Part shown: positions 16,055-37,338 of the stretch, piece by piece
Layout: each line of letters begins with the position of its first letter
Position numbering within the stretch: position 1 is the first letter of the stretch
Program-made: the position numbers and the translations under genes
The notes under the pieces: generated by a model
What the model saw: the letters and a program-made list of their open reading frames with translations, nothing else
Databases searched by the model: none
What the model was told of the DNA's origin: nothing
Source: Patescibacteria group bacterium
Lineage (GTDB): Bacteria; Patescibacteriota; Patescibacteriia; JAHJFT01
Length of the DNA: 64,000 nucleotides
Reading direction: 5' to 3'
Assembly: GCA_028710985.1 (NCBI GenBank)
Contig: JAQTTB010000001.1
Coordinates: 19,280-83,279 of the forward strand

Positions 16055-17308
16055 ATGGAAATCAAATTAATAAAAATCGCTGAAAAATTTTTCAAAACCG
16101 ACATTAATTATTTAATTAAGGGCGGCTTTTGGCTTACTTCCGGGCAAATCCTTACTTCGCTGTCATCTCTAATTTTAGCAATCGCTTTTGCCAATTTGCT
16201 GGAAAGAGAATCTTATGGCACCTATAGATATATTCTTTCCGCAATCGGCATCATTTCGCTCTTTACTCTTCCGGGAATAAATACCTCTTTGATAAGATCG
16301 ATAGCGAATAATTTTTCCGGATCCTACCTGAAGGCAATTAAGACAAAGTTTAAATTTTCACTGATTGCCACTATAGCTTGCTTAATAGTCGGAATATATT
16401 ATTTTTATTGCCAAAATAATGAAATTGCCTTTTGTTTCTTTATTATTGCATCCATTATCCCTTTCAATAAATCATCCGAACTCTATTTGTCTGTACTGAA
16501 CGGCCAGAAAAGATTTAAACTCTATACTATTCTATATGCGAGTTCAAATATTATTGCAACGTTGTCAATAATCTTAACTTTATTTTTCACGGATAGTTTA
16601 GCGCTAATTTTAACGTCGTATTTCTTATCTTATACGATCCTGCAATTAATATTTTCTTTGTACGTAAAAAAATACCTAAACAACAATGAGGCTGATAATA
16701 CCGTTGAATATGGCATTCATTTGAGCATAATGGATGTAATCAAAACGATCGCCGGACATCTCGACAGGATACTCATATTCAACGCAATGGGACCGTTAGA
16801 GGTGGCTATTTACTCTTTTGCCGTTGTCCCGCATAGCCAGGCAAAAAGTTTCCTCGAAAATATTAAAGTCCTCGCTTTCCCCAAACTTAGCGCGTCCAAC
16901 GAGGAGGATATAAGAAAATTTTTACCAAAAAAAATTCTAAAAATGGAGCTCATAATCGCAATCTTGGTAATCATCTACATCTTCGCCGCTCCGACCCTAT
17001 TCCAAATATTTCTCCCGAAATACATGGATTCGGTCCTCTATTCCCAAGTGTACTTTATCTCGTTGATATTTTTCCCAAGAACAATTTTATCTACCGCAAT
17101 GACCGCAAAAATAAAAAAGAAAGAACTTTATTCCATAAGAATCCTCAGTCCAATACTAAGAATTATACTGATGGTCGTCGGATTAAAATTCTTTCAACTT
17201 TGGGGCGTACTCGTCGCGGGTATGGCGGCAAATGCGCTCATGATGTTAATCTACGGCTATTACTTTAAAAAAGCATTCAAGCAAATCACTTATCAATCAT
17301 CTCTCTAG
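16055..17308 (+). CDS. polysaccharide biosynthesis protein, Wzx-like oligosaccharide flippase (MOP/MATE-like superfamily)
   Basis: 417 aa with about 12-14 predicted TM helices. Typical size and topology for Wzx. It is the only plus-strand gene in the island. Confidence 0.6.
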   Translation: MEIKLIKIAEKFFKTDINYLIKGGFWLTSGQILTSLSSLILAIAFANLLERESYGTYRYILSAIGIISLFTLPGINTSLIRSIANNFSGSYLKAIKTKFKFSLIATIACLIVGIYYFYCQNNEIAFCFFIIASIIPFNKSSELYLSVLNGQKRFKLYTILYASSNIIATLSIILTLFFTDSLALILTSYFLSYTILQLIFSLYVKKYLNNNEADNTVEYGIHLSIMDVIKTIAGHLDRILIFNAMGPLEVAIYSFAVVPHSQAKSFLENIKVLAFPKLSASNEEDIRKFLPKKILKMELIIAILVIIYIFAAPTLFQIFLPKYMDSVLYSQVYFISLIFFPRTILSTAMTAKIKKKELYSIRILSPILRIILMVVGLKFFQLWGVLVAGMAANALMMLIYGYYFKKAFKQITYQSSL

Positions 17309-18071
17309 AAAAAAGACTGTTGCGGGGATATATCAGCAAGATCTGAAATAGCAAATATACTATCGAAAAAATGATATATAGACCATACATCCATACTCCA
17401 TATCTAATATCGTACAAGCAAACCAATAATATCAATAAATACCATATCCATACGAAGTCGTAGATCATACTTACCGAATAGTTAAGAAATTTCATAAAAA
17501 CCTTTTTACCCGTAAAGAGGTTTTTATTATAATCCCTGAGGACATCCTGATGATTTTCAAGAGTAACTTTATATTTGATATGATGCCTCAACTTACCTAG
17601 CATTTTATAGTTAGTGAGCAATATGGAAAAAACAATGCTCGAAATTAATATCAGCATGTTCTGCGTAAGAACATAAAGAAAAACGCCCGTAGAAAAAGTC
17701 AAGGCAAACGGATAATAGAAATGAAATAATATCTCGTAATATATTCCCCTCTGAGTATAATGCTCACGATATCGGGCAATACCACCGTCTACCTTATCCA
17801 ACATTGATGATATTCTCATCAAAATAAGCTGGATAAAATATATCCAGAAAGGATCTACGGCAAATAACAGTAAATTAATAAAAAGGGAGATAATCAATAA
17901 CGCCACATTCAAAACGGACACGAAGTTGGGCGAAATTTTTGGAAAAATATTTAACAAAATAAATGTTATATACAAGGCCAGATAGCGTTCTGCGCGGTAT
18001 ATAATACCGCTCTTTTTTATTTTTTCCTGCTTGCCCAAGAAACATTTATCCCTCAGCTCAGAAAATGTCAT
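17286..18071 (-). CDS. CDP-alcohol phosphatidyltransferase-like polytopic membrane protein
   Basis: Contains DKVDGGIARYREHYTQRG, a partial match to the DG-x2-AR-x8-G CDP-OH_P_transf motif. Multiple TM helices. Confidence 0.4.
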   Translation of the reverse strand: MTFSELRDKCFLGKQEKIKKSGIIYRAERYLALYITFILLNIFPKISPNFVSVLNVALLIISLFINLLLFAVDPFWIYFIQLILMRISSMLDKVDGGIARYREHYTQRGIYYEILFHFYYPFALTFSTGVFLYVLTQNMLILISSIVFSILLTNYKMLGKLRHHIKYKVTLENHQDVLRDYNKNLFTGKKVFMKFLNYSVSMIYDFVWIWYLLILLVCLYDIRYGVWMYGLYIIFSIVYLLFQILLIYPRNSLFSREMIDK

Positions 18072-19177
18072 ATAAATTTAAATAATTTAATTAGTTTATC
18101 CGTCTGCTGTGATAAGGAAAAATTATCACGGACATGGGAAAATGCCGCCATCCCCATTTTATTTCTAGTTTCACTATCCAGCATTTTCTTTATAGCATTA
18201 CTGATTTGATCTTCATTGCCACGCTCAATAATAAACCCATTCACATTATCAAGCACTATCTTATTTATTCCCCCTACGGCAGTTGAAATAACCGGCAATC
18301 CACATGACATGGCCTCCAGTACGGCATTTGGACAACCCTCATTTTTAGAGTATAAAATAAAAATATCGGCCAATAGATACTGTTCTTTTAATTCCTCTCT
18401 ATCCAATAAACCGGTAAAAATAACTTTTTCTGCCAGCCCTAAATCAAGCGCAATTTTTTCGAAATGCTGCCGCAATTGACCCTCGCCGACGAGAACAAGT
18501 CTGGCGATAGGCAGACCCCGATCCACCATTTTTTTAAAAAAATAAATTAATTGTTCCTGGCCCTTGTTCTCATTTTTCATCGAGCCCACATTCAATAACG
18601 TTACCCGGTCAATTTTTTTACCTTTTCTTAATTCCCCCAATGCTCCTTCGGATATTTCAATTTCGACTCCATTATTAATAACAATCATCCGGTTTCGATA
18701 GAATGGCTGATACTTGACTAGGCTGTTCATTACTTCTTCTGAAACGGCGATTATCCTATAGCAACAAAAATTTAAAAAAACATCGATTATCCTTAAAAAC
18801 AAACTCTTTCGATCCGCCATCCCCGATTCTCGAATTAAAACCCTCAGCCTCGGATTAAAAATTTTCAAAAGTCTAGCAACGACGTTCGCCACATCTAGGG
18901 TAGAATAAACAAATTTTATATTGTTAGTTTTCACAAAAAGCAGGGTTCGATAAAATGATCTAACGTCAAATAAATACTTAAAATTAAAACTCACTACTTC
19001 ATTTTTTATTCGTAATTTGGAAACGAAGGTCTGTTCGGCGCGAAAAATCGTAGCAAAAAAAATATTAAATCCCTGCGCCGATAAATAGTTAGCCTGTTTT
19101 ATAAAATAAGTTTCGGCGCCGCCGACACCCAATCCGTTTATCAAAAGTAATATATTTTTAGTTGCAGATTCTTTCAT
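18068..19177 (-). CDS. glycosyltransferase family 4
   Basis: N-terminal LLINGLGVGGAETY. C-terminal NEGCPNAVLEAMSCGLPVIST. Confidence 0.75.
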   Translation of the reverse strand: MKESATKNILLLINGLGVGGAETYFIKQANYLSAQGFNIFFATIFRAEQTFVSKLRIKNEVVSFNFKYLFDVRSFYRTLLFVKTNNIKFVYSTLDVANVVARLLKIFNPRLRVLIRESGMADRKSLFLRIIDVFLNFCCYRIIAVSEEVMNSLVKYQPFYRNRMIVINNGVEIEISEGALGELRKGKKIDRVTLLNVGSMKNENKGQEQLIYFFKKMVDRGLPIARLVLVGEGQLRQHFEKIALDLGLAEKVIFTGLLDREELKEQYLLADIFILYSKNEGCPNAVLEAMSCGLPVISTAVGGINKIVLDNVNGFIIERGNEDQISNAIKKMLDSETRNKMGMAAFSHVRDNFSLSQQTDKLIKLFKFI

Positions 19178-19178
19178 A

Positions 19179-19847
19179 TCAGTTACACCGCACCACGGCC
19201 CATATTTCCCCCCAATTTATTTTGTAATCCGATATAGACATTCCGGCTGAATTCAGCTCTTCGGAAAAGTCATTAAAAGTATATTCAATAAAATGATTCC
19301 GATCCAATCGATATTCAAGTCCAAGCTCTTTTTTATACGGCACTAACCAATCCCGATTAATCATCGGCACGCGTATTAAAGCGATATCGCAAATATTTTT
19401 TATTTGCTTTAAAAGAGAAGTCCTATCATCTATATGCTCCAGTACATTAGATACTACGACGCGATCAAATTTTTCATTAAAACTATACTGTGTCGCATCG
19501 GCGACAATATATTCAACGTTTGGCAACGCGCAGTGCGATTTTGCATACTCAATACTGGTTTTATTCATATCAATCCCCACGACTCTTTTGGCCTTTTTGG
19601 CAATCTCGCGGGTCAAAATACCATTACCGCAGCCAATATCAAGGACGGTGTGCGATGGCTCGATATTATTTAGAAAAAAATCGTGATATTCAGTGAGGCG
19701 ATGCTTTGGATGTATCCCCCCCTCTCGCAATGAAGCGACCGTGACAATTTTATGCAATGCCCAATCGTGCAAATAAAATAATCGCCTCAGGATCCAGAGG
19801 GATAAATTTTTATTTTTAAACGCTCTTTTTAATAAATCCTTTAGCAT
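19179..19847 (-). CDS. class I SAM-dependent methyltransferase
   Basis: VLDIGCGNGILTREIA is SAM-binding motif I. 222 aa. Confidence 0.7.
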   Translation of the reverse strand: MLKDLLKRAFKNKNLSLWILRRLFYLHDWALHKIVTVASLREGGIHPKHRLTEYHDFFLNNIEPSHTVLDIGCGNGILTREIAKKAKRVVGIDMNKTSIEYAKSHCALPNVEYIVADATQYSFNEKFDRVVVSNVLEHIDDRTSLLKQIKNICDIALIRVPMINRDWLVPYKKELGLEYRLDRNHFIEYTFNDFSEELNSAGMSISDYKINWGEIWAVVRCN

Positions 19848-20775
19848 ATTCTTTTAATGTGGAACTAATAATACTTTTTTTCTTTGAAAAAATCAGCATC
19901 TTTTCAAACAAATCATAAAAATGTTCCAATTCCTGTTCATTTTTCACATAAGGGCTTCCGCCGATCATCAGCTCGCTTGAATGCACCATAAAAACAGCTA
20001 CGGGAAAATTTTGTCTGAGTAAAGCTTCGAGCACAGACCTTATTTCATCAAAACTTGAGTTTGAGAATATCCTCAACCACCGCTGTTTAAAAAATAATTT
20101 ATTTAATACTTTTTTCAATAACGAATCCGGCAATAAAGCAAATGACCTAGAAATATATGAGGCCTCTCCAACGAAAGGTGAGGTAAACGCAACTGTCATC
20201 GGCACCTCCAATACCCCGTCCACTACCGAGGGCATCAGCGACGAACCGCGAAAATCCGGTCCCCGTCTATCGTGGCCGCCGGAAGAATTATTCTTCCATG
20301 ATATCTTTGGGGTTACCGAGCTGTCGGCGATATAGCCCAATTTATTCAAAAATCGCATTATCCGAATATCATAACCCCAGCGTCCGGCTCGATGAGTCTT
20401 TGGACTTATGCCAAAATTTTCCGCAATCGCCTTTGTTAAAGATGATAATTTTTTGTACAGCTCTTCGTCTTCAAGCTCATTAGGAAAACGATGCTTCAGC
20501 ATTTCCCATTCCCTGTCCTTCACACAAGGCGGTGTTGTCCAAGGATGCAAATGAGCCCCAACTTCCGCTGACCCGGAATCCTGAAAAGGCTTAAGAATAT
20601 TTACCGATTCTCTATCTACCGCAACCTCATAAGTTATAAAATATGTCGGTTTAAAGCGATATTTTTGGCAAAGCTCCTGGAAGCGAGGCAGAAATTTAAT
20701 ATTTTCAAGTGTAATTTCCTCAGATCTTTTCCACTGGTTGTCCGCCTCAACATCAACGGTTATTATTAATTTCAT
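19816..20775 (-). CDS. polysaccharide deacetylase-like protein (divergent)
   Basis: An ITVDVEAD N-terminal beta-strand and His-rich segments resemble divergent carbohydrate esterase 4 (CE4) deacetylase proteins. Weak call. Confidence 0.4.
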   Translation of the reverse strand: MKLIITVDVEADNQWKRSEEITLENIKFLPRFQELCQKYRFKPTYFITYEVAVDRESVNILKPFQDSGSAEVGAHLHPWTTPPCVKDREWEMLKHRFPNELEDEELYKKLSSLTKAIAENFGISPKTHRAGRWGYDIRIMRFLNKLGYIADSSVTPKISWKNNSSGGHDRRGPDFRGSSLMPSVVDGVLEVPMTVAFTSPFVGEASYISRSFALLPDSLLKKVLNKLFFKQRWLRIFSNSSFDEIRSVLEALLRQNFPVAVFMVHSSELMIGGSPYVKNEQELEHFYDLFEKMLIFSKKKSIISSTLKEYAKGFIKKSV

Positions 20776-22406
20776 ACATTTTTAAAACCCCTGATTCGCA
20801 TCCAATATTTGATAACGCTTGAATACACCTTGTAATAATAGTAACATTGTTTTCTTTCACCGCCAAATGCTTCCTTGAATTCAGCGATTGACCTGAGCCC
20901 CCTCTGATTTGAATCCGGACTTATGCCGCCTAAGTCAAAAATTTCATGATCCGTTAATTTCGCGTATCGAATTGCCTCCCAAACGATCATCCGATTTGCC
21001 TGCCCCACAATCTCGCACTGCTGGCTATCGGAAAAACGCAGTGAGGAAAGAGCCCAAGCACGAATATTCCTAGTATCGCTGATAAAAATACCGCCGGCGA
21101 TCATTTCGTTTTTATAATAAGCGGAAAAAAGTAAGCCGTTTTCTAGATAATGGTTGACTCTTTCGATGGGCAAACCTTTTTCTGAGCGAAAAATACTATA
21201 AATTCTTCTAAATTCCTTATGATTTAGGTCATTTTTTACGATAATCCCATTTCTTTCCCCTCTTTGAATCTGTTTACAGATATAATTTTTCCTCATCTTG
21301 CTCCAAATCGTTTCAATGCTCTGTCTTAAATCAATTACCGTGGTTAAACCCGCTCGTTTATGAAAATCTGGCTTATCAATATTGTGATAGGAAAAAAAAT
21401 TGATCATTCCAACGCCTGGAATGTCTTGCGGATCCTCAAACCATCGCCAGCACTTTTTTAAAAAATTAGTGTCAAATAAACCATAGCAAATCCGGCTAGA
21501 AATTACCGGCTTATGCGCCTTTATTAATATAAGATGTGAAAAACCTCTGATTATCGGCAAGTGTTCAGCGAGGCGAAAAAGCGTTGGATAAATTTTTTTT
21601 AAAAAACCCATCCTCTGTTCAAACGGAAGCGCTATGTCAATGAAACTAACATTGTCGATAAAAAAATTTTTGTTAAATAAATTTATTATATCTTTCGCGG
21701 AAAAATAATAATAATAAATACCCGAAGGATGAACTCCCTCTTTTGGTAATTTCTTTAATCTCCTCCTTAAATCAAGATGATACGCCGATAAAATCAACGG
21801 CTTGCCCGGCGCAAGGGTGAAATTAATGTTTTGGAGAAACTGATTACGATACGCATCGGATGGCAAATGCTCTAAGACTTGGGCAGAGAAAGCAATATCA
21901 AAAAAACCTTTTGCTGTTTTAAACGACGTTACGTCAGCCCAGACCAAACCAACATTATTGGATTTTAATTTGCACGAAAGTATCTCCAGCGAATTAAACG
22001 AGATATCCACCCCCAATAAACAACTATAATCAACAAATTCCTCTGTAAAACGACCTGTTCCGCAGCCATACTCAATTATTTTTTTTCCCGATACGTCGCC
22101 GACTTGCGCAAGCGTTGAGGGAATTTCCCTATCATGCCTCGCAGACAATCTAGCGTCATAACCGCCAGCTTGCGCATCTCTAACGGCTATCTCAGAACCT
22201 ATTTTTTCATCATTGACCGTCTGCTCCGGCAATATAAACAAAATCCCATTTTTAATTTGATATGCTTTCCCACAACGAACGCATTTTAGAAAACCATTAA
22301 ATATTGCCTCGTCATTGCCGCTTTCCATGCCACCAATTTCAAGACGAGCGTTATCAGATTGACAGACCAGGCAAGCAATAAGTTTTTTCGAAAATCCTAT
22401 CCTCAT
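20772..22406 (-). CDS. tri-domain fusion: Trm112-like zinc-ribbon + class I SAM methyltransferase + C-terminal FemAB/GNAT-like acyltransferase domain
   Basis: CLVCQ...CVRCGK zinc ribbon. IIEYGCGTGRFTEEF SAM motif. C-terminal region of about 190 aa with a GNAT/FemAB-like pattern (IRAWALSS...FDLGG). Confidence 0.55.
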   Translation of the reverse strand: MRIGFSKKLIACLVCQSDNARLEIGGMESGNDEAIFNGFLKCVRCGKAYQIKNGILFILPEQTVNDEKIGSEIAVRDAQAGGYDARLSARHDREIPSTLAQVGDVSGKKIIEYGCGTGRFTEEFVDYSCLLGVDISFNSLEILSCKLKSNNVGLVWADVTSFKTAKGFFDIAFSAQVLEHLPSDAYRNQFLQNINFTLAPGKPLILSAYHLDLRRRLKKLPKEGVHPSGIYYYYFSAKDIINLFNKNFFIDNVSFIDIALPFEQRMGFLKKIYPTLFRLAEHLPIIRGFSHLILIKAHKPVISSRICYGLFDTNFLKKCWRWFEDPQDIPGVGMINFFSYHNIDKPDFHKRAGLTTVIDLRQSIETIWSKMRKNYICKQIQRGERNGIIVKNDLNHKEFRRIYSIFRSEKGLPIERVNHYLENGLLFSAYYKNEMIAGGIFISDTRNIRAWALSSLRFSDSQQCEIVGQANRMIVWEAIRYAKLTDHEIFDLGGISPDSNQRGLRSIAEFKEAFGGERKQCYYYYKVYSSVIKYWMRIRGFKNV

Positions 22407-22408
22407 AT

Positions 22409-23521
22409 TTATCCTAAAATCTTCATTAAATCATTATAAAACCGATCGGGGTTATACTGATTCTTTATCAATTCAAAGCCGGCATTTCCCATTTTTATTA
22501 AGTTGTGCTGATCCGAAATAGTCAGGCGAATCTTATCTATTAAATCGACCAAATTTTTACTTTCAAAGATGTAACCATTCACGCCATTCTCAATATATTC
22601 CTTCGTTCCATTTTCGCTCGAACTAATAACCGCCAGTTTGCAACTCATTGCTTCAACTATCGAAAAAGCCGCGGCTTCACCATAGCTCGGTAAAATGAAT
22701 ACATCATTTACTTTATATTCTTCATAAACATCCTTCCAATTAATATCAAATTTCACCTTCACAATTTCCGATAAATTATTAACTTTAATGTACTCTAATA
22801 ATTCATTTGTATATTCATTCTCATCCCTTTCGCCGACTAATGTAAGATTAATATTAAAATTATCTTTTAATTTTTCAACGGCCTTAACTAATAAAATCTG
22901 ATTCTTGCGCTCTTGGAATTTACCTACGCAGATAATATTAACCCATCCGCCAATAAAATACTCCTTGTTGAAGTCAAGCGCTTCATGAACAAATGGAATA
23001 TAAAAAAGATTCTTATTCTTACTTGCATAAGCGTCGTTACCCCTCAATGGAGTAATTACCGACGCCTTCCACAAAAAACCAACCAGCCAAATCGAGAAAC
23101 TCTTGATTTTTTTTCTAAATTTTTCAATTTGAATTAAAAAAATAATTTTTTTAACACCCAGGAACCGACTTAGAAGCGCGCCAAGGATTGAATAAAGACT
23201 ATCAATATTTTTTATCAGCACAACGTTCGGCCGATATTCCTTTATCAAATGATATAGTGAAAATATGGGTGGATAGCTATATCGTATCTCGAACCGATTC
23301 TTAATTGTGCGTCCACCCCGCTTATTGAATATTCTATTAAATAGCTTAAAAATATTCGAATATCCAACAACTCGCGGTTCTAGAATATCATAGCATTCTG
23401 ATTTTCCGCGATACATAACAAACATGGCCACTTCGTGTCCAAATGACTGAAGGGCCTCAATCATGTAGAAAAAATTTGTATGATATCGCGGGGTAAGAAA
23501 TAAAAATTTCATTGATTTCAA
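22409..23521 (-). CDS. glycosyltransferase family 4
   Basis: C-terminal GEAAAFSIVEAMSCKLAVISS GT4 motif. Confidence 0.7.
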   Translation of the reverse strand: MKSMKFLFLTPRYHTNFFYMIEALQSFGHEVAMFVMYRGKSECYDILEPRVVGYSNIFKLFNRIFNKRGGRTIKNRFEIRYSYPPIFSLYHLIKEYRPNVVLIKNIDSLYSILGALLSRFLGVKKIIFLIQIEKFRKKIKSFSIWLVGFLWKASVITPLRGNDAYASKNKNLFYIPFVHEALDFNKEYFIGGWVNIICVGKFQERKNQILLVKAVEKLKDNFNINLTLVGERDENEYTNELLEYIKVNNLSEIVKVKFDINWKDVYEEYKVNDVFILPSYGEAAAFSIVEAMSCKLAVISSSENGTKEYIENGVNGYIFESKNLVDLIDKIRLTISDQHNLIKMGNAGFELIKNQYNPDRFYNDLMKILG

Positions 23522-25224
23522 ATTTTTAAAATTTTATAATCCTTATTACTGAAAACTTCCTCCAGTCCGTCTGCTGAATTCGAACTATAGTATAAATCCA
23601 TATATTTACCGCGCGGCAAAAGAATATATGAACAATCAAGCCTAACGGCAAAATTTACAATCTCTTTGAAGTCAGCCGCTTTTTCAACGATCTGATTATA
23701 TGCCTGTCTCTCCTCATACCATCTTTTAGCATTTTCGAAATTTGAAGTAACCCAAATAGAACCTTCTTTTTCAGTCAGATTAGTATTCTGCCTACTTAAT
23801 ACTTTGAATTTAAATTCATTTTGAAAGTCATCAAAAACAAAAATCCGGTTCTCACTAACGGAAAGCGCGCTTTTTGCCCAAATTGCCGCCTCATAAAGAT
23901 TGTTAAAGTTATTTGTATTCGATTCATCCACCACGGGGGCTAAATTATATTTTATTCTTATGCCTTCGGGCACCAATGCCCTTACTACCGGCCTAATAAC
24001 GGGCGCAAAAAAATAAATTGGCGTAACCACAACGATCAAAGATAATGCTACGGACAGCCATTTTTTATTCATCCTAGAATAAAGCAAATAAACAACTAGA
24101 GCGAACTGCATGATTAGAATGAAGCCCAACACCCTCATTAGCCGAATGTGCTCCACGAAAAATGGCAGCTCTCCATTTTTCATTAAAAAATAATTAGTAA
24201 CATCAACACCGATAACGAATAAAATGGTTATAATCATCAGTATGGTGCTGATTTTATGAACTGCCCGTTTCTCCGAATCTAATGAGGACCCGTAGATACG
24301 CATGATAAAAAACGATAAAAAAAACATTAAGATCATTGTAAAACTATCCCACATCGAACGTTTAATTCTGGCCAAGTCGACTGTCGCGAGAAAACCGTTC
24401 GCTTCAAACCTATATTGAACAATTTCAGAATGCAAAGCAACGTCCTCGGCGCTCAAATACTCCTCGGCCGGAATCATGCCGGTACTCGAATTAGTAAAAT
24501 GGTTTATCAAAAATGGCAAAGCTACTATAAAATAAATGACAGCAAAAATAATTATCGGCTTGAAATATGCCCTATGTTGCTTCGCATAAAAAATCAAAGC
24601 GCCCAAGATAAATAAACCGATAACTACGCTTCCGACGGGCGGATATAAGTAAAGCAAAATGCCGGCAGATATTGCCAATAAAATATTATATTTATTATTT
24701 TTTAAACCATAAATTATCCAATAGTAGCTAAGCAAAAAATAAAAAGGAAAGGCGAATGTATTGCCGCGCAAATTCCCAAGATCGAGCAAGCCAATTCTTG
24801 TAAAGAATACATTACGCGGTACTACGCACAAAAGTCCCACCAATGCCGCTAGGGACCAGCTTTTAAATATTTTTTTAGCAATTAATCCGCTCGCAAGATA
24901 GGTTATGGCAATTATAAGAATAGTAAATAGATGATAGCTCACTAAATCATACTTCAAGCCTGGATTGAAATAATAAAAAACCGGGAACGCTGCATATAGC
25001 TCCTCCTGATTATAAGCCGACGGCACGTCTGTCCATACTCCATCATTTTTTTGTATCATCAATAATTGATAACACCAAAGATCGCTGCTCAAATCGCCAA
25101 GATTACTACCATAATTAGTAAAAATATAATAAAAAATTATGACTACAAGTATGATAGTAAAAAAAAGTTTAGAATTGAAAAATTTTAACATTTTATTTAC
25201 GTTGTTTAAATAGAAGATCAGCAA
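23518..25224 (-). CDS. polytopic membrane protein, GT-C-like (GtrC/YfhO-like), directly downstream of a GtrB-like GT2
   Basis: About 420 aa of TM helices followed by a roughly 150-aa soluble C-terminal domain. Translationally coupled to the GT2 at 25193..26050. Confidence 0.5.
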   Translation of the reverse strand: MLIFYLNNVNKMLKFFNSKLFFTIILVVIIFYYIFTNYGSNLGDLSSDLWCYQLLMIQKNDGVWTDVPSAYNQEELYAAFPVFYYFNPGLKYDLVSYHLFTILIIAITYLASGLIAKKIFKSWSLAALVGLLCVVPRNVFFTRIGLLDLGNLRGNTFAFPFYFLLSYYWIIYGLKNNKYNILLAISAGILLYLYPPVGSVVIGLFILGALIFYAKQHRAYFKPIIIFAVIYFIVALPFLINHFTNSSTGMIPAEEYLSAEDVALHSEIVQYRFEANGFLATVDLARIKRSMWDSFTMILMFFLSFFIMRIYGSSLDSEKRAVHKISTILMIITILFVIGVDVTNYFLMKNGELPFFVEHIRLMRVLGFILIMQFALVVYLLYSRMNKKWLSVALSLIVVVTPIYFFAPVIRPVVRALVPEGIRIKYNLAPVVDESNTNNFNNLYEAAIWAKSALSVSENRIFVFDDFQNEFKFKVLSRQNTNLTEKEGSIWVTSNFENAKRWYEERQAYNQIVEKAADFKEIVNFAVRLDCSYILLPRGKYMDLYYSSNSADGLEEVFSNKDYKILKI

Positions 25225-26054: not shown

Positions 26055-26981
26055 TTATTTATTTATTGCAATTATTCGAATATTGGAGGTGGCATATAGA
26101 GCCCCGAGAACAAAATCAATTAACGAAAAAAATAGTGTTAAAAATAAATTATTTATATTAAACCAACCGGCAATTTTTTTATGTTTGTCATCGAAATAAT
26201 GATGCAATGACTGAATCCAGAAAGTCGGGCTCAGCAAAAATTGAATTCCAATAACAGCGAAATTGCACTCATTCAACAAACCCACGAGGATATTTTTATT
26301 AAAAATATGCCAATGTCGTGGTATATGATAGCCTCCCCAATATCTCTTTCTAAAAATTCTCGCATCTAGAGAATCGTAATTTGGGGTTTCGATAATAAGC
26401 AAGCCGTTCCGTTTAAGCATCCTCCTGGCCTTTAAAATAATTTCGCGTGGATTATGAAGGTGCTCAATCGTTTGATTCAAAATGATTGCGTCAAAATAAT
26501 CATAATAACCCCCCATTTCTTCGAATCTTCCTGCAATGAATTCGATACCATGCCGATTTAATATATCACCAGTTGCAGAATTAATATCATTGCCATACAA
26601 TTTCCATCCGCTACCCCTGTGTTTCTTAATAATTCTGAGCAATTCTCCGTTGCCGCACCCACCGTCGAGAATTCTAGCATCATCCGAAAGATTAGCAAGC
26701 AAAGGACGAACCTTCAATCTTTGCACAAAATTCCGCGCAATCTTTGTAATAAAATTTAACCCCTCTTCAAATTTATAAGGAAAATAATTTGCTGGATAAA
26801 TCTTTTCAATTTCTCCGACGGTCGGATTGGGATTTAGGTATATCACACCGCACTTTAAACACTTTACGTAACAATATTCCTGATCGGATGTGTGATATTC
26901 AAAATCTTTTCCATGCGCCCAAACTTTGTACAGATCCGATCCGCATACACCACGACAAGCTTTTTGGGTCCTTATTTCCAT
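26055..26981 (-). CDS. class I SAM-dependent methyltransferase with N-terminal Cys4 zinc-ribbon
   Basis: CRGVCGS...CLKCGVIY zinc ribbon. ILDGGCGNGELLRII SAM motif. Confidence 0.7.
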   Translation of the reverse strand: MEIRTQKACRGVCGSDLYKVWAHGKDFEYHTSDQEYCYVKCLKCGVIYLNPNPTVGEIEKIYPANYFPYKFEEGLNFITKIARNFVQRLKVRPLLANLSDDARILDGGCGNGELLRIIKKHRGSGWKLYGNDINSATGDILNRHGIEFIAGRFEEMGGYYDYFDAIILNQTIEHLHNPREIILKARRMLKRNGLLIIETPNYDSLDARIFRKRYWGGYHIPRHWHIFNKNILVGLLNECNFAVIGIQFLLSPTFWIQSLHHYFDDKHKKIAGWFNINNLFLTLFFSLIDFVLGALYATSNIRIIAINK

Positions 26982-29346: not shown

Positions 29347-30783
29347 TCACGCTTCAACAATTTTCTTTTTACGACCTCCGAATTTCCATGAATTGCCATT
29401 TCTCATCTGAATATAAATTGAATTCAAATCAATTTCTGAATTACTTCTCAACCATCGTTCGATAAGATCCCTTGATAAATATGTAGTTGTTGGCGTTACC
29501 AATTGGTCAAAAACAATGTGGTGAAAAAAAATAAAGTTCTCCTCGGAAATCCAAACGGTATATTGATATAATGGTAATTTTTTTACAAAAGAAATACTTT
29601 TAAGTATATTGATTATTTTAGAGTAAAGAAAAAATAAAATAGCCAATGGGCCAGCGATAAAATATTTATTTAACCACCATGGTGTATGACAAACAATGCG
29701 ACGAAGTCGATCGATGACGTTTATTATTATCCAATTGCCTTCTTCCGCATAAACCCAGCAATGAAAACGACCGCCGGGTATAGTATTTTTAATTACAAAA
29801 TTAAAACCCAACTCCGGCTCCTTTAAATGATGGAGAACGCCAATACAATAAACAACATCGAACCCACCTTCGCTGAATTGTAAAATATCATCCTGAATAA
29901 TCCTATATTTTGTATTTTTGATATCTTCTAAATTTTTTCTCGCCGAATCGACGGAAGCACCTAAGTCAACCCCAACCATTTCACGCGGCTGCCAATTTGC
30001 TAAATGCACCATCAGGCTGCCATTGCCGCAGCCGAGCTCTAATATTTTATTTCCAGAAAAATCATTCTTGGTCAGTGGATGCATCCAATCCTCGAACTGT
30101 TTAAATGTATATATTGAACCAGCGACCAGATGATTCCACGATTTGGCAAATGCATCTGCCGTACCCTGATCCGGACTAGCAATAGCTTCATTCAGCTCCT
30201 TGGAGTGTGATTTTACACAAACGAATTCAAACGAAATCTCATCAAATCCCCCAACCCAAAAGCACCATATTCTGCTGCAAAAAACCTGGTTAAAATTAGC
30301 TAAACCGCTAATAAATTTATCTACTATTTTCAGTAGTTGCGTGGAAATTTCGCCATAACCCAAATATTGCAATAAATGCGGAAAAGCCATCCACCGCAGT
30401 TCCATTCTTTTCAGCCTAAATTCGACGCCGATATATCCAGATGAAGTATACTTTTCATTAAAGTAAAGGGGGAAAGCAACATCAAAACCGTGTGCATGTT
30501 GAGCGTGCGTAAAGCCGCGAGAAAAATGCGGCACTTTCAATTTTAAAATGCCGCCGTCTCTTAAAATTCTGTGCATCTCTTTCATCACCTCGAACGGTTT
30601 ATCGAGATGCTCCAAAACATGATAAGCCTCAATCAAATCAAAGCTATTCGATTCAAATGGATAAGGCAAACTGTTCAGGTCATGGATAACATCCGGTGAA
30701 ACTAACGGATTGATGTCAACATTGATATAATCGCTCTTTTTTGACGCACCGCATCCTAAATTTAATTTGTTCGTACTTTTCAT
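29347..30783 (-). CDS. tandem dual-domain SAM-dependent methyltransferase
   Basis: Two SAM motifs: LNLGCGASKK and ILELGCGNGSLMVHL. 478 aa. Confidence 0.65.
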   Translation of the reverse strand: MKSTNKLNLGCGASKKSDYINVDINPLVSPDVIHDLNSLPYPFESNSFDLIEAYHVLEHLDKPFEVMKEMHRILRDGGILKLKVPHFSRGFTHAQHAHGFDVAFPLYFNEKYTSSGYIGVEFRLKRMELRWMAFPHLLQYLGYGEISTQLLKIVDKFISGLANFNQVFCSRIWCFWVGGFDEISFEFVCVKSHSKELNEAIASPDQGTADAFAKSWNHLVAGSIYTFKQFEDWMHPLTKNDFSGNKILELGCGNGSLMVHLANWQPREMVGVDLGASVDSARKNLEDIKNTKYRIIQDDILQFSEGGFDVVYCIGVLHHLKEPELGFNFVIKNTIPGGRFHCWVYAEEGNWIIINVIDRLRRIVCHTPWWLNKYFIAGPLAILFFLYSKIINILKSISFVKKLPLYQYTVWISEENFIFFHHIVFDQLVTPTTTYLSRDLIERWLRSNSEIDLNSIYIQMRNGNSWKFGGRKKKIVEA

Positions 30784-30800
30784 AACTGGATTTAAAATGT

Positions 30801-31754
30801 CTAAAAATTAATTTTAGATTTTAAAACGTACGGTTTCTCCCCTCGCGATTCATAATAAGTGCGCATGATCAATTCCGCTAAAACACCCATGGCGATAAGC
30901 TGTATGCCGACAATGATAAATAAAGCAGTCAATATCGGCAATGGAGTCTCCACGAAACTTCTTAATCCAAAAATTTTAAGCACAATCGCAGATAGGCCGG
31001 CCATAATCCCGACAAAAAGCGCGATAAACCCCATCCCTCCAAAAAAATGCATCGGCTTATTCAAATACTTTTCAAAAAATTTTATAACTACCAAATCCAG
31101 TAAAACTCTAAAAATTCTAGATAAACCATAATTGCTCCGACCGGCTTTTCTTGGACGATAGTTTACCTCCACTTCTGTCAGATTAGCGCCTTGGCGTACG
31201 GCATAAGCCGGTATAAACCGATGCATTTCTCCATAGAGGGAAAACCCGTGTAATATTTTTTTTCTATATGCCTTCAATGTGCATCCATAGTCATGCAACT
31301 TAACATTAGTAATTCTTGAAATCAACCAGTTCGCCATGAGGGAGGGCAGTCTACGACTTAATTTATTCTTTTGCCAACGCCCGCGACGCCACCCGGAAAC
31401 AACGTCATACCCGTTATTAATACGCTCCAAGAGCCTTGGAATATCGGCCGGGTCATTTTCTAAATCACTATCCATGGTCACGATTATATCACTGCTCGCA
31501 TATTCAATCCCGGCTTGAAGCGCGGCGGTTTGTCCGCGATTTACCGCAAAACTTAAAACCTTAATTTTATTATTATCGCCCGCTAGTGATTTTAACACGG
31601 CCAAAGAATTGTCGCTCGACCCATCGTCAACCAGAATTATTTCATAATCATAACTATTCCTCTCCATTACGGACACGATCTCTCGGACCAATTCCAATAA
31701 ATTTTTTTCCTCATTATAGACTGGTATAACAATCGATAAATGCATATTTCCCAT
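30801..31754 (-). CDS. glycosyltransferase family 2, GtrB/ArnC-like polyprenyl-phosphate sugar synthase
   Basis: LSIVIPVYNEEKNLLELV...LVDDGSSDNS...MDSDLEND plus two C-terminal TM helices. Confidence 0.8.
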   Translation of the reverse strand: MGNMHLSIVIPVYNEEKNLLELVREIVSVMERNSYDYEIILVDDGSSDNSLAVLKSLAGDNNKIKVLSFAVNRGQTAALQAGIEYASSDIIVTMDSDLENDPADIPRLLERINNGYDVVSGWRRGRWQKNKLSRRLPSLMANWLISRITNVKLHDYGCTLKAYRKKILHGFSLYGEMHRFIPAYAVRQGANLTEVEVNYRPRKAGRSNYGLSRIFRVLLDLVVIKFFEKYLNKPMHFFGGMGFIALFVGIMAGLSAIVLKIFGLRSFVETPLPILTALFIIVGIQLIAMGVLAELIMRTYYESRGEKPYVLKSKINF

Positions 31755-33418
31755 TAAAATTTAATTAAAACAAAATATTCATTTTGCGATATGGGAAGAT
31801 CCCCTTGATCCCCTTCTTTCACCACTCCGGCTAACGCTGAGTTCGAACGCAATAGCGCATAATTTGCCCCATATTTACGACCAAAATCTATCAACTTAAC
31901 GATATCGTCACCGTGTAGGGCATTGTTTTGTTCTTCAAATACTCTGCGCCATTCTACCAATTGATTCTTGCCCGACATTAAATATGCGGATCCCTCTTCA
32001 AAGGAAGTAACTATATTAACCCTGCAGAAATAACGCAAATTAAAATCATTACTAATCACGGTATCCCCGTCGCCGACACCGCCGTTTTTAAGTTGCTGGC
32101 AAACTATATTATATATCTTTTCCTGGTCTTCAAACACCTTATTTTGAAATACCCTGGGTATATATTCCTCCTGATAATTCTCATAACCTAATAAAAATTG
32201 AAACCATTCGAAGCCAAAGGAGGAGCTCAAAAAGCCCAAAATGAGCAGGGCGGATAAGAAAATTACTCGAACTTTTTTTTGTAAAAAATATCTATTGCGT
32301 CTAAATAATTCTTCCAGTGAAACAGCCACTAATAAAAATATACCAAAGTAAACAAATTTAAAAAATCGACTAGTTTGCTGAAAAATAAACGGACCATCCA
32401 AATGGATCATCGCTATTTGTAGTATTGGAAAAAATACACTAAAAAATATTGAGAGCAGTATAAATAAAATTGACCACTTTGCGATAAGATAATCCAAGGA
32501 TTCTTTTATGATTAACCTCTTTTTCAAGAGGTACAAAACATATGCAACGAATGGCGCAAAGAAAACAAGAATAATTATCATATGCCGTATCCACATAAGG
32601 CTCTCCGGCGGATAATCCCATGGCGTCCTAAAAATTATCGCTTCCAAGAAGTCTAAGCTTGAGTATTCAACATTAGATAAAAATTTGGAATTTATTGCAT
32701 CTAAACGAAAAATTATTTCATACAACAGCAAGGATGAACCAAGAATAAATGCAGCTGACGCTGATGCGGTCTGTTTCAAAACACCAAAAAAATTATTGCG
32801 CCAAAATAAAAGAAATAAAGATATTACGAGAGCTAGAAAAGTAAAAAATAATATGCTTACCGGATGAATATAAGAGACTATACCGAGCAATAAGAACAAC
32901 GGCCAAATTTTCTTATTGTCGTAAATAAATTTAATAATTAATGCACCGATTATCCATAAGAATGGCATCGCCGTCGAACGTCCCAAAACTTCATAATTCG
33001 TGAGAACTCCGAATATTTCGTTCCCGACCGAAAAGCGCGGGGCAAGGGCTACTATAGCTACAACGATCGCGATTGAACGCCGTATGCCCAATATTCTAAG
33101 CGCAATATACGCCGAATAACCAGTAAAAAAAACCATAGAAAATAATAGTATATTGCGGCTGGTAAATGGATCAAAGAAATAACTCAACGCATTAATAATA
33201 TATGGATAAACGTAGTATCGATACGTCATCGTGGACAATAATTCATTTCCTGGATAAGAACTATCCATTAAAGCCCGGTTAGACGCCATAATGGCAATCT
33301 CATCGCCATTGAGTCTAAACGGCAGGGAAAAATTATAAACAACCGACAGAGCGGCAATAAACAAAAAAATCAATATTACACATAAATTGACGATTCCAAC
33401 ATTTTTACGCTCTGACAT
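31754..33418 (-). CDS. polytopic membrane protein, GT-C-like (GtrC/YfhO-like), directly downstream of a GtrB-like GT2
   Basis: About 400 aa of TM helices plus a roughly 150-aa soluble C-terminal domain. Start/stop overlap with the GT2 at 30801..31754. Confidence 0.5.
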   Translation of the reverse strand: MSERKNVGIVNLCVILIFLFIAALSVVYNFSLPFRLNGDEIAIMASNRALMDSSYPGNELLSTMTYRYYVYPYIINALSYFFDPFTSRNILLFSMVFFTGYSAYIALRILGIRRSIAIVVAIVALAPRFSVGNEIFGVLTNYEVLGRSTAMPFLWIIGALIIKFIYDNKKIWPLFLLLGIVSYIHPVSILFFTFLALVISLFLLFWRNNFFGVLKQTASASAAFILGSSLLLYEIIFRLDAINSKFLSNVEYSSLDFLEAIIFRTPWDYPPESLMWIRHMIIILVFFAPFVAYVLYLLKKRLIIKESLDYLIAKWSILFILLSIFFSVFFPILQIAMIHLDGPFIFQQTSRFFKFVYFGIFLLVAVSLEELFRRNRYFLQKKVRVIFLSALLILGFLSSSFGFEWFQFLLGYENYQEEYIPRVFQNKVFEDQEKIYNIVCQQLKNGGVGDGDTVISNDFNLRYFCRVNIVTSFEEGSAYLMSGKNQLVEWRRVFEEQNNALHGDDIVKLIDFGRKYGANYALLRSNSALAGVVKEGDQGDLPISQNEYFVLIKF

Positions 33419-33430
33419 ATTTTATGAAAA

Positions 33431-34159
33431 TTATTTTCTACATATCGCCATCAACGAAACGCCGAATGGAAAATTAAAACGCTTCAATACAAACGCTTCC
33501 AGGGAAAACACCCAAAATAATATACGAGATAAGGGGCCGCCGCTGCCGACAAATTCGATTTTCTTAACAGAAAAAAAAGCTTTTTCGAAAAAACGGAAAA
33601 ATAATATTGGCAAAAATAAAATGGTATTAAAATACGAAGAACGTACAACGTGCAAACCCAAACTCCGTAATTTTACAAAAATTTGATTGTAGGTATAACG
33701 GCGAAAATGATGTCCCGCCTCATCGGCCCAGCCCCACAAAAAATTAAAAGCAGGAACAAAAATAATAATTATTCCTTCTTTTTTTACTACACGTTTCAAT
33801 TCACTAATAGCTTTATTATCATCAGACACGTGTTCTAATACATCGAGGCAAATCACAACATCAAAAAAATTATCTGGAAATTGAATATTCGTAATATCTC
33901 CCAAATCGACATTCTCTAAAAAATTTTGTTTACAAAAATTAACGGCCAACGGGCTATTATCAACGCCATAACAAACACCGAATTTTTTGAGCTCCTTCAT
34001 CAGCATACCCGTGCCACAACCGACATCGAGCATCTTCAATGCACCACTATGGTCAGAAAAAAAATTACTGATTATATCAGCTACAATTCTTCGCCTCACC
34101 CTATACCACCAATTATCTTTTTCAGCTGTATAAATTAATTTATAGACGTCAGATCGCAT
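33431..34159 (-). CDS. class I SAM-dependent methyltransferase
   Basis: MLDVGCGTGMLMKEL SAM motif. Confidence 0.7.
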   Translation of the reverse strand: MRSDVYKLIYTAEKDNWWYRVRRRIVADIISNFFSDHSGALKMLDVGCGTGMLMKELKKFGVCYGVDNSPLAVNFCKQNFLENVDLGDITNIQFPDNFFDVVICLDVLEHVSDDNKAISELKRVVKKEGIIIIFVPAFNFLWGWADEAGHHFRRYTYNQIFVKLRSLGLHVVRSSYFNTILFLPILFFRFFEKAFFSVKKIEFVGSGGPLSRILFWVFSLEAFVLKRFNFPFGVSLMAICRK

Positions 34160-35237: not shown

Positions 35238-36337
35238 GTTTCGTTATAAAGTTTTAATGTCGCCTCCTTGCCCGGAAGTCGCTCTAACGCGTTCTTGGCA
35301 TTTTGACTAAACTTCATTTTTAATTCAGGGTTATTCTTTACTTTGACCAATGCGTCAGAAATCGCACTTATATTATTTACCGGGACCACGATACCATTCT
35401 CATAGTTTTTTACCACCTCTCCGGCGCAACCGACGTCGGTCATGATAACTGCGCAGCTGCAAGCCAGGGATTCAATAGCCACCCTGCTCCATCCTTCGTA
35501 TTCAGAGGTCAATAAAACACAATCCGCTCCCTTAAAAAAACTCACAACGTCCTGGGTCCAGGGAATGAAAATCACCGATTCACCCAAGCCCAATTCGCCT
35601 ACCAATCTTTTTAATTCTTTTTCCTGACTCCCCTCGCCAACAATGAGCAAGCCGCTCTTAGGACTTTTTTTTAAGAACATTAAAAATGCTTTTAAGGCAA
35701 CGTCTATTCTTTTTACCCTCTCCAATCGCCCCATAACCAGAGCGATAAAATCAAATTGTGAATATTTTTCCTTTAGATTAAAATCCGGCTCCTTTAATTC
35801 CAGACTTTTCCAAGGTGTGCAAATCGGCAGAACCGTTATCTTTTCTTGATTAATCCCTCTCTTGATTAAGTCCCGCTTGATTCTCTGACTAACCGCTCTG
35901 ATAGAATCGGCCTTTTTTATAATTCCCAAGCCAAGATACCATCGTAGATTGTTCAAAAAATTTTCTCCGCGCCAATGAGGATTACTAAAAAAATCGCCAT
36001 GGAGTTGAATATTCAAACCTAAACCGAATTTTCTTTTAGCGAAATATCCGATTAACCCGATGGCAAACGGGTCTTGAACCGAAACGACATTAATATTGCT
36101 GCGCTTAATAATGCTGGCTGCTTCCCTCCACAATTTTAACCAGCCAAAAAATTTATTATTAACTCCCACGGATCGTACGAATACGTTGTCGGTTAATTGT
36201 ATATTCGTGCTACAACCAGCCGGCAGCAAAATATAAAATTTATTACCAATAAAATTGGCGTAACTCTTAAATCTCTCCTGTGTCTCGCTACCCGACTTTA
36301 AAATTCTTGCATCGGTGCCAATTATCAAAATGTTCAT
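35213..36337 (-). CDS. glycosyltransferase family 4
   Basis: C-terminal EYEGWSRVAIESLACSCAVIMTDVG motif. Confidence 0.75.
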   Translation of the reverse strand: MNILIIGTDARILKSGSETQERFKSYANFIGNKFYILLPAGCSTNIQLTDNVFVRSVGVNNKFFGWLKLWREAASIIKRSNINVVSVQDPFAIGLIGYFAKRKFGLGLNIQLHGDFFSNPHWRGENFLNNLRWYLGLGIIKKADSIRAVSQRIKRDLIKRGINQEKITVLPICTPWKSLELKEPDFNLKEKYSQFDFIALVMGRLERVKRIDVALKAFLMFLKKSPKSGLLIVGEGSQEKELKRLVGELGLGESVIFIPWTQDVVSFFKGADCVLLTSEYEGWSRVAIESLACSCAVIMTDVGCAGEVVKNYENGIVVPVNNISAISDALVKVKNNPELKMKFSQNAKNALERLPGKEATLKLYNETWDKAIKK

Positions 36338-37338
36338 TTCAGCTTCAAATTAATTGCTTTAATTATCGGCTTATTGGCAATGCTGCAGTTTTTGCATACC
36401 GGCAATTCCTGCTCAATGACTGCTCTTCTGATTTTTGCGTATTTATCGCTCTGCCAAATTTTATTAAAACTTCTTTCTTCAAAAACATTACCAACCACGA
36501 TGCTCCCCTCAAGATCGGTGCAGCATACACCCACATCACCGTTCCAAAGTATCACACTGCGCCAAATCCAGGGGCATGTCTTTGGCTTATCTATATTCAC
36601 GAGTCTACCCTCCTTCAGGCGATAGCGACTATTTTTTAAATCCGTTGGCAGAAACTCCAAGGCATTTGCTAGAAGCTTTTCCTGAAGTTCGGCCGTTGAC
36701 CCGATATTGAAAGAAGCGCTTTTAAACCACAGGGCGTCAACTCCGAGCTTGCGGCCCAAATCCTCAATCGCTCCCATCTCACGCTCATTGAACTTCATTA
36801 CCAAGAATTGAATAATAATCCTTGTCTTGCGGTTTTTGATGCCCGCTATCTGCCGCAGGGTTCCAACTATTTTATTAAAATCGCTATTGACACGATATTT
36901 CTGCTGCGTCTCGGCCGATGCTCCGTCCATGGCAAAAATCAAATTATCAATTCCATAGCCGACCGCCTCGCGATACCTTTCAACCGGCATGGTCCCATTA
37001 GTACTAACTGTCAATATATAACCGTGGTCTTTGAGATACTTCACCATCGCCGGAAACTCAGGATTGGCGAATGATTCGCCGGAAAAGTGCAAAGTAATTT
37101 TTTTGATGCTCCTGGGCAAATAACTTTCTATTTCCTCGAGCTGTTTCAAGGTTAAAAATCCTCTCGGCTTGGTTGACGTTCTCTGAATGCAAAACGGACA
37201 ACGCAAATTACAAAAACTCGAGGCCTCAATAATTATTTCTTTAAGCGGCCTAACCCTCCGAATCCAGGCATCTGGAAGCAATAACAGCGCTCTGTTGAAC
37301 AGAGTCGATTTACTTATTTTATCTTTCAGCCAATACAT
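36334..37338 (-). CDS. radical SAM protein with C-terminal SPASM/twitch Cys cluster
   Basis: CNLRCPFC (CxxxCxxC) near the N-terminus. C-terminal CPWIW...CCTDLEG...CKNC cysteine cluster. Confidence 0.75.
   Translation of the reverse strand: MYWLKDKISKSTLFNRALLLLPDAWIRRVRPLKEIIIEASSFCNLRCPFCIQRTSTKPRGFLTLKQLEEIESYLPRSIKKITLHFSGESFANPEFPAMVKYLKDHGYILTVSTNGTMPVERYREAVGYGIDNLIFAMDGASAETQQKYRVNSDFNKIVGTLRQIAGIKNRKTRIIIQFLVMKFNEREMGAIEDLGRKLGVDALWFKSASFNIGSTAELQEKLLANALEFLPTDLKNSRYRLKEGRLVNIDKPKTCPWIWRSVILWNGDVGVCCTDLEGSIVVGNVFEERSFNKIWQSDKYAKIRRAVIEQELPVCKNCSIANKPIIKAINLKLK

Follow-up and report, generated by a model that had tools for sequence, protein, structure and literature searches.

We describe here an unusual three-domain protein encoded in a glycan island of a Patescibacteria group bacterium (GenBank assembly GCA_028710985.1). 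The DNA analysed, hereafter the window, is a stretch of 64,000 nucleotides of contig JAQTTB010000001.1 (positions 19,280 to 83,279), and all coordinates are given in the numbering of the window. An open reading frame (ORF) of 544 amino acids (aa) at 20772..22406 on the minus strand joins a Trm112-like ribbon, a class I S-adenosylmethionine (SAM)-dependent methyltransferase and a shortened Fem-type, or FemABX-like, GNAT domain. Both the SAM motif of the methyltransferase and a lysine of the Fem-type domain are conserved, the two enzymatic parts occur fused in some genomes and split in others, and a CE4-like deacetylase gene is an obligate neighbour. The full reading that we propose, for which belief and doubt are about evenly balanced, is that the protein is a bifunctional enzyme, soluble and cytoplasmic, that tailors a lipid-linked surface glycan in a pathway of deacetylation, tRNA-dependent aminoacylation and methylation.

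A three-domain protein encoded by one gene

The gene has an ATG start and a TGA stop in the ORF list of the window. This list, hidden Markov model (HMM) searches and an AlphaFold2 (AF2) model of the full chain, with a predicted local distance difference test score (pLDDT) of 89.1 and a predicted template modelling score (pTM) of 0.74, together give a ribbon, a methyltransferase and a Fem-type domain in a single ORF, as an earlier sequence-only reading of the window had claimed. That reading had also raised the possibility of an assembly chimera in which a frameshift joins two genes. The identical protein (P0001) is present at NCBI on a 744-kb contig, under the name 'MAG: class I SAM-dependent methyltransferase [Patescibacteria group bacterium]', and two other, independent Logan assemblies (SRR22315506 and SRR22315509) also contain it, with the same neighbours. 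About 20 full-length homologues with 36-51% identity, from different samples and lineages of the Candidate Phyla Radiation (CPR), are conserved end to end; an alignment of 17 homologues has a mean column identity of 54% and invariant residues in all three parts. The junction DNA between the methyltransferase and the Fem-type domain has a clean linker and lacks a frameshift signature. An artefact would agree with the finding that the two halves are separate genes in most relatives, but given the independent assemblies, the full-length homologues, the clean linker and the confident model of the whole chain we reject it, its probability being practically nil. The gene is tightly packed between its neighbours: the stop of the upstream GT4 glycosyltransferase gene lies 2 nucleotides before its start, and its own stop overlaps the start of the following 319-aa gene (ATGA). 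The three genes are therefore probably co-translated.

The methyltransferase domain (aa 63-300; 21507..22220, minus strand) was assigned by Pfam, with a class I match over aa 93-246 (E 3e-12) and similar values for Methyltransf_23, Methyltransf_25 and Methyltransf_11 (each E ~1e-12). Its SAM-binding motif I, EYGCGTGR, covers aa 112-119 (22050..22073, minus strand) in the translation. Residues E112, G114, G116, G118, D134, Q176, E179 and H180 are invariant in 17 out of 17 homologues. The domain shows the Rossmann-like fold of class I enzymes, with the motif I pattern E/D-x-G-x-G-x-G and an acidic residue following beta2, and it is very probably active. The best NCBIfam match is the daptide amine methyltransferase, and amine N-methyltransferases are frequent among the relatives nearest to it that carry a name (daptide methyltransferase, PEAMT, phosphatidylethanolamine N-methyltransferase, NRMT1, CypM and NodS).

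The N-terminal part (aa 1-62; 22221..22406, minus strand) is a Trm112-like beta ribbon with the cysteine pairs C12-x2-C15 and C42-x2-C45. It matches the NCBIfam model Trm112_arch (NF038101) over aa 8-62 with E 1e-6 and 28.8 bits, under the cutoff of 77, and Pfam Trm112p (PF03966) with E 0.23. A 60-aa PDB chain deposited as 'Uncharacterized protein' (6zxw_H) matches the ribbon with E 0.015, and AF2 predicts four strands with pLDDT 91-95. The region had been read as a Cys4 zinc ribbon, and the 544-aa protein has the four cysteines and, in the model, the ribbon fold; the Cys4 site, however, is not conserved. Only C15 and C42 are invariant across the 17 sequences, with C45 in 12 of them and C12 in the 544-aa protein only, hence a zinc site is not a feature of the family. 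Known complexes of Trm112 with methyltransferases, such as Hvo_0019-Trm112 and Trm9-Trm112, differ in several respects: here the ribbon is fused in cis, the zinc ligands are not conserved across the family, and the context is glycan synthesis rather than translation.

A shortened Fem-type domain and its donor

The C-terminal domain (aa 305-544; 20775..21494, minus strand) was assigned by means of its AF2 model, a profile search of PDB sequences and its stand-alone relatives. The sequence-only reading had proposed a FemAB-type domain of roughly 190 aa. Structure prediction yields a GNAT-type fold closest to solved Fem enzymes, so this assignment stands by profile and structure, whereas the length is about 240 aa and the first lobe is reduced. 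Modelled by itself, with 24 sequences, the domain reached pLDDT 94.2 and pTM 0.90 and consists of four N-terminal beta strands (aa 305-359) followed by one complete GNAT lobe. It thus lacks the two complete GNAT lobes of the Fem enzymes, with 240 aa versus 335 for FemX and 311 for Sbb17.

The likeness to FemAB is weak by single-sequence HMM and strong by profile and structure. The single sequence matches the FemABX family (PF02388) only over aa 470-520, with E 0.005 and 16.3 bits versus a cutoff of 24, and the NCBIfam PEP-CTERM FemAB model TIGR03019, which represents another Fem-like/Acetyltransf_6 type of exopolysaccharide loci, over aa 353-529 with E 0.002, also under cutoff. Stand-alone relatives clear the PF02388 threshold (P0088 with 44.4 bits, P0064 with 38.3 bits), therefore the link to the family is transitive. 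A search of PDB sequences with the domain profile identified Sbb17 (E 2e-7) and FemX (E 0.003). Structural comparison gave the highest scores to Fem enzymes (FemX_Wv 17.9, Sbb17 17.2, FemX_Sa 15.4, FemA 14.0) and to MprF/LpiA (16.4) and L-PGS (14.8), while CoA-dependent GNATs scored 12.8 or less with ~125 residues aligned. When the model of all 544 aa was compared by Foldseek, the top match was the crystal structure of Sbb17 with streptothrisamine, its amino-sugar acceptor.

These two relatives show what is shared and what is not. FemX of Weissella viridescens, an aminoacyl-tRNA-dependent FemABX enzyme acting on peptidoglycan precursors, has in common with the domain an FK motif with the catalytic lysine and a basic surface; it differs by its full first lobe and its coiled coil, by a sequence identity of only 19%, and by its role in peptidoglycan synthesis, as opposed to a gene in a glycan locus that is fused to a methyltransferase. 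Sbb17 and Sba18 (PDB 9wqw-9wqy) were deposited as aminoacyl-tRNA-dependent peptide synthases and crystallised with streptothrisamine. Sbb17 is the closest solved relative by sequence, and its acceptor, a sugar amine, corresponds to the chemistry proposed for the 544-aa protein. Both are enzymes of Streptomyces secondary metabolism of ~311 aa, with a fuller first lobe, no methyltransferase fusion and ~21% identity.

The residue likely required for catalysis is K511 (codon 20874..20876, minus strand), in the motif E-F-K-E-A-F-G-G. An alignment of HMM profiles pairs F510-K511 with F304-K305 of FemX and with the FK of Sbb17. The pair is invariant in the 17 full-length homologues, and of 129 representatives aligned from the wider family, 128 have a lysine at position 511. 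In FemX the corresponding Lys305 is catalytic and the only reactive residue at the active site, and Lys329, its counterpart in DhpH-C, is essential (review PMC12945691). The domain is also strongly basic (net charge +12 here, family median +16.5, isoelectric point 9.2-10.5), which fits tRNA binding and is not specific to it.

Taken together, an aminoacyl-tRNA is fairly probable as the donor. Every top structural or sequence neighbour of known donor uses an aminoacyl-tRNA, the Fem-specific catalytic lysine is nearly universal, and in one relative (P0091) the Fem-type domain is followed by a C-terminal GatB/GatE tail, a tRNA-binding domain (Pfam E 1e-12; PDB GatE E 5e-17). The gene of P0091 adjoins a GT4 gene and a deacetylase-like ORF, and its tail is the sole hint at the sequence level that would point specifically to tRNA. 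A dedicated tRNA gene was not found in the window.

An acyl-CoA or acyl-acyl carrier protein (ACP) donor is unlikely, though it has to be taken seriously, and the same holds for the alternative built on it, in which the domain is an N-acyltransferase of the GNAT type, similar to Acetyltransf_6 or HfsK, that puts an acyl group, though not an amino acid, back onto a deacetylated sugar while the methyltransferase acts elsewhere on the unit. Relatives do match Pfam Acetyltransf_6, a GNAT family, and several stand-alone relatives clear both its threshold and that of FemAB. The first lobe is truncated in comparison with all proven tRNA-dependent enzymes. HfsK of Caulobacter crescentus, a soluble Fem-like enzyme tied to holdfast polysaccharide synthesis that we liken to the domain by description, is discussed as an acyltransferase alongside the deacetylase HfsH (PMC5362036); it differs in having two GNAT lobes and a cyclic di-GMP-binding tail and no methyltransferase or GT4 fusion. 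Finally, the consensus R-E-I-V-G-Q-A (R-x-x-x-G-x-A) at the beta4-alpha3 position resembles GNAT motif A, being one residue longer than Q/R-x-x-G-x-G/A. This stretch does not discriminate between donors, since Sbb17, from a proven tRNA-dependent family, carries a similar R-x-x-G stretch, and the neighbours of known donor, the lysine and the GatB/GatE tail all speak against an acyl donor.

The deacetylase-like neighbour, the cassette and the acceptor

A scan of species-representative genomes identified 22 close loci (39-60% identity), onto which the proteins of the window were mapped. Nearly all are from Patescibacteria, including Parcubacteria, Saccharibacteria, Magasanikbacteria, Vogelbacteria and Falkowbacteria. 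The ribbon-methyltransferase is fused to the Fem-type domain in four loci, is the adjacent upstream gene in nine and lies one gene away in two, 15 of the 22 in all; it is absent from six, and the remaining locus has a GT4 fused to the Fem-type domain in its place. In relatives the two halves are thus usually neighbouring separate genes, a positive outcome of a check that the sequence-only reading had suggested. In locus L006, for instance, a separate gene of 247 aa encodes the same domain as the Fem-type part (hhalign probability 100%, 55% identity). Such a pattern of fused, adjacent and separate genes is a classic sign of two enzymes that work in one pathway. The absence of the methyltransferase from six loci means that methylation is not obligatory for the Fem-type step. 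In L014 a stop codon breaks the Fem-type gene (2102-2863), so that this copy is a pseudogene unless the stop stems from a sequencing error. A CPR-type cassette at 52-53% identity also occurs on two contigs (L018, L023) with the label of Gammaproteobacteria metagenome-assembled genomes, by mis-binning or lateral transfer.

Beyond what the sequence-only reading had noted, a CE4-like deacetylase is the invariable partner. Each of the 22 close loci has its orthologue, which in 17 of them follows directly. In the window this partner is the 319-aa protein at 19816..20775 (minus strand), which matches Pfam Polysacc_deac_1 (PF01522) with 24.5 bits against a cutoff of 23.1; only six of 21 orthologues match the model. 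The profile of the partner family retrieved CE4 deacetylases only from the PDB, weakly (E 0.017-1.5). Its invariant residues D8, E10, D12, H75-x-H77, R129 and H265 resemble CE4 motifs 1, 2, 3 and 5, and we regard the protein as a probable divergent CE4 deacetylase. A hydropathy scan detected no hydrophobic segments in either the 544-aa or the 319-aa protein, so both are expected to work in the cytoplasm, with SAM and aminoacyl-tRNA at hand, ahead of the Wzx-type flippase.

The common order of the cassette is a polytopic membrane protein, a GT4, the methyltransferase plus Fem-type part, the deacetylase-like protein, a methyltransferase, a GT4, a CDP-alcohol-phosphatidyltransferase-like protein and a flippase on the opposite strand. 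Upstream, the 370-aa GT4 (22409..23521, minus strand; Pfam Glycos_transf_1, E 9e-30) has orthologues of 38-50% identity at the same position in L003/L017, L012, L013, L014, L016 and L022, and the 568-aa polytopic membrane protein (23518..25224, minus strand; hydropathy scan) has orthologues of 41-50% identity in L003, L012, L013, L016 and L022. Downstream of the deacetylase, the rest of the cassette (16055..19847, mostly assigned by Pfam) comprises a methyltransferase (19179-19847, minus), a GT4 (18068-19177, minus), the CDP-alcohol phosphatidyltransferase-like membrane protein (17286-18071, minus), which is closest to archaetidylinositol-phosphate synthase (E 2e-6), and the Wzx-type flippase (16055-17308, plus). 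This downstream order is common to L003, L011, L012, L013, L016, L021 and L022. Distant stand-alone relatives of ~35% identity (L007, L066) adjoin clear Polysacc_deac_1, methyltransferase and GT4 genes. In both of these loci Phosphodiest or Sulfatase-family genes stand beside the deacetylase/Fem-type/methyltransferase trio, and L007 has two Fem-type paralogues.

The context bears on the acceptor. It is quite improbable that the acceptor is the head group of a membrane lipid or glycolipid. In that case the CDP-alcohol phosphatidyltransferase-like protein and the GT4s would build a lipid that bears glucosamine, and its aminoacylation would be tRNA-dependent, as with MprF. The succession of GT4, deacetylase and amine modification does follow the logic of glucosamine-lipid and mycothiol-type pathways, and the CDP-OH_P_transf-like protein is a conserved member of the cassette. 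Against this acceptor, a polyprenyl-phosphate glycosylphosphotransferase, a Wzx flippase, a Wzy_C/TPR protein and at least ten glycosyltransferases typify a polymer pathway, and the Fem-type domain has no membrane segment. Some source annotations (stand-alone relatives are named 'hypothetical' or 'lipid II:glycine glycyltransferase') imply peptidoglycan branching by a FemX/MurM orthologue whose substrate would be UDP-MurNAc-pentapeptide or lipid II. This is very improbable and is rejected on gene context: mur or peptidoglycan genes are absent from every locus examined, the gene always has GT4, deacetylase, methyltransferase and flippase genes around it and forms fusions with a GT4 or a methyltransferase, and the lobe that binds UDP-MurNAc-pentapeptide in FemX, at 19% identity, is largely missing.

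We return to tailoring of a lipid-linked surface glycan, for which the following pathway may be envisaged. A GT4 glycosyltransferase would add an N-acetyl-hexosamine, from which the CE4-like enzyme encoded immediately downstream would remove the acetyl group. The Fem-type domain would then move an amino acid from aminoacyl-tRNA to the freed sugar amine, using Lys511 like FemX uses Lys305. The N-terminal methyltransferase would methylate the same moiety, most likely at the new alpha-amine or, alternatively, at the sugar amine before acylation. Donor, acceptor and transferred amino acid are inferred in this scheme, as are the site and timing of methylation and the action of both activities on the same sugar. 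The Wzx-type flippase would export the modified unit. The alternative methylation site follows the logic of NodB/NodS/NodA in Nod-factor synthesis, where de-N-acetylation of N-acetylglucosamine, SAM-dependent N-methylation and N-acylation of the freed amine are clustered. The comparison with Nod is an analogy only, since NodA has a fold unrelated to the Fem-type domain and uses an acyl-ACP donor; NodS is a weak match of the methyltransferase domain, a likeness generic to class I. For the chemistry itself precedents exist. With Gly-tRNA as donor, Orf11 of the BD-12 pathway, whose solved relative is Sbb17, aminoacylates the amino sugar in streptothrisamine (PMC12945691), and HfsK with HfsH is a precedent for a Fem-like enzyme plus a deacetylase on an exopolysaccharide.

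Several points weigh against this pathway. The first GNAT lobe, which holds the acceptor in FemX, is reduced to four strands, thus the acceptor site cannot be modelled on FemX. The 544-aa protein misses the Pfam FemAB threshold (16.3 versus 24 bits), the persisting stretch similar to motif A leaves an acyl-CoA donor possible, and the fusion to a GatB tail occurs in only 1 of 150 representatives. O-, C- and RNA methyltransferases are found among the structural neighbours of the methyltransferase domain with similar scores, and the ribbon-methyltransferase is lacking in the six loci mentioned above. The CE4 assignment of the 319-aa neighbour is marginal, and both donor and acceptor are derived computationally.

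The glycan island and the wider family

From ~16 to 42 kb the window has 35-42% GC, with flanks of ~48-52%, and this low GC content of the island (16000-42000) suggests horizontal acquisition or a distinct compositional regime. The island holds the polyprenyl-phosphate glycosylphosphotransferase, the flippase, at least ten GT2/GT4 enzymes, an AsnB-type amidotransferase, two GtrA-like proteins, a radical SAM/SPASM enzyme, epimerases and the Wzy_C/TPR protein. Five other methyltransferase domains had been counted in it by the sequence-only reading, and these were recovered in four genes (19179-19847, 26055-26981, 29347-30783 with two domains, and 33431-34159). The 478-aa protein at 29347-30783 (minus) has its two class I methyltransferase stretches in one chain. 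The radical SAM/SPASM enzyme (36334-37338, minus) lies between glycosyltransferases, which is unusual for a glycan locus; its best NCBIfam match is a tungsten-cofactor oxidoreductase maturase model, with E 8e-33 and far below cutoff. The proteins at 23518-25224 and 31754-33418 (both minus), ~560 aa with ~10-12 hydrophobic segments and only faintly alike, had no match in Pfam and NCBIfam searches; they could be polymerases or else GT-C-like. The gene at 43417-45660 (minus), on the margin of the island, encodes the protein with Wzy_C (O-antigen ligase/polymerase) and TPR; L003 and L004 have this architecture next to the cassette too, immediately ahead of secA.

A search of 1.84 billion cluster representatives with the family profile identified 5,891 proteins with E < 1e-3, of which 114 had E < 1e-30. 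Most members are stand-alone proteins of 240-260 aa. Fusions of GT4 and Fem-type domain (~620 aa) were found in P0021-23, P0029, P0031, P0033 and P0036, and P0012 (904 aa) combines GT4, methyltransferase and Fem-type domain. P0012 was considered as the upstream GT4 of the window joined to the 544-aa gene, and such a simple orthology was rejected: the upstream GT4 shares 27-28% identity with the GT4s of P0012 and P0021, in the C-terminal half only, and the fused GT4 of P0021 is closer to the downstream GT4 of the window (31% over 353 aa). Between its GT4 and Fem-type domains, P0021 (locus L005, 8001-9926) keeps the stretch GHLILVKAGKK, which corresponds to the last strand of the methyltransferase and seems to be a remnant of an ancestral methyltransferase fusion whose domain was replaced. 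In the metagenomic P0054 (437 aa) the Fem-type domain breaks off after 175 aa and runs directly into the deacetylase-like protein, which starts at ~residue 70 of its own sequence, as if a deletion had fused two neighbouring genes; as the catalytic lysine is lacking P0054 is probably a pseudogene or an artefact. Fused forms are scattered among split forms in a neighbour-joining tree of Fem-type domains, a hint that fusion or fission took place more than once; as the tree carries no support values, it was not relied on.

Fem-like enzymes in polysaccharide loci, such as HfsK, were already known, as was the superfamily of each domain, and the literature yielded no direct precedent for Fem-like enzymes in CPR or O-antigen contexts. 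New are the shortened Fem-type domain, its recurrent fusion to a ribbon-methyltransferase or a GT4, the obligate pairing with a CE4-like protein and the concentration in CPR. A broader proposal, which we make tentatively and with somewhat more doubt than belief, is that Patescibacteria and some other uncultivated lineages carry a widespread and hitherto unrecognised module of a CE4-like deacetylase, a Fem-type transferase of one and a bit lobes and usually a methyltransferase. Such a module would use aminoacyl-tRNA to place an amino acid on an amino sugar of an envelope glycan or glycolipid, the missing acceptor lobe being supplied by a fused or adjacent methyltransferase or GT4.

Current annotation misses the C-terminal domain, since the NCBI label names merely a methyltransferase. 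The family is large and has a clear set of partners, and its shortened Fem-type domain with variable fusions offers a compact system for the study of acceptor recognition by Fem enzymes. If the donor is indeed an aminoacyl-tRNA, envelope glycans would be a fourth acceptor class for the non-ribosomal use of tRNA, after peptidoglycan, membrane lipids and natural products, in organisms whose almost unknown surface chemistry probably mediates the attachment to their hosts.

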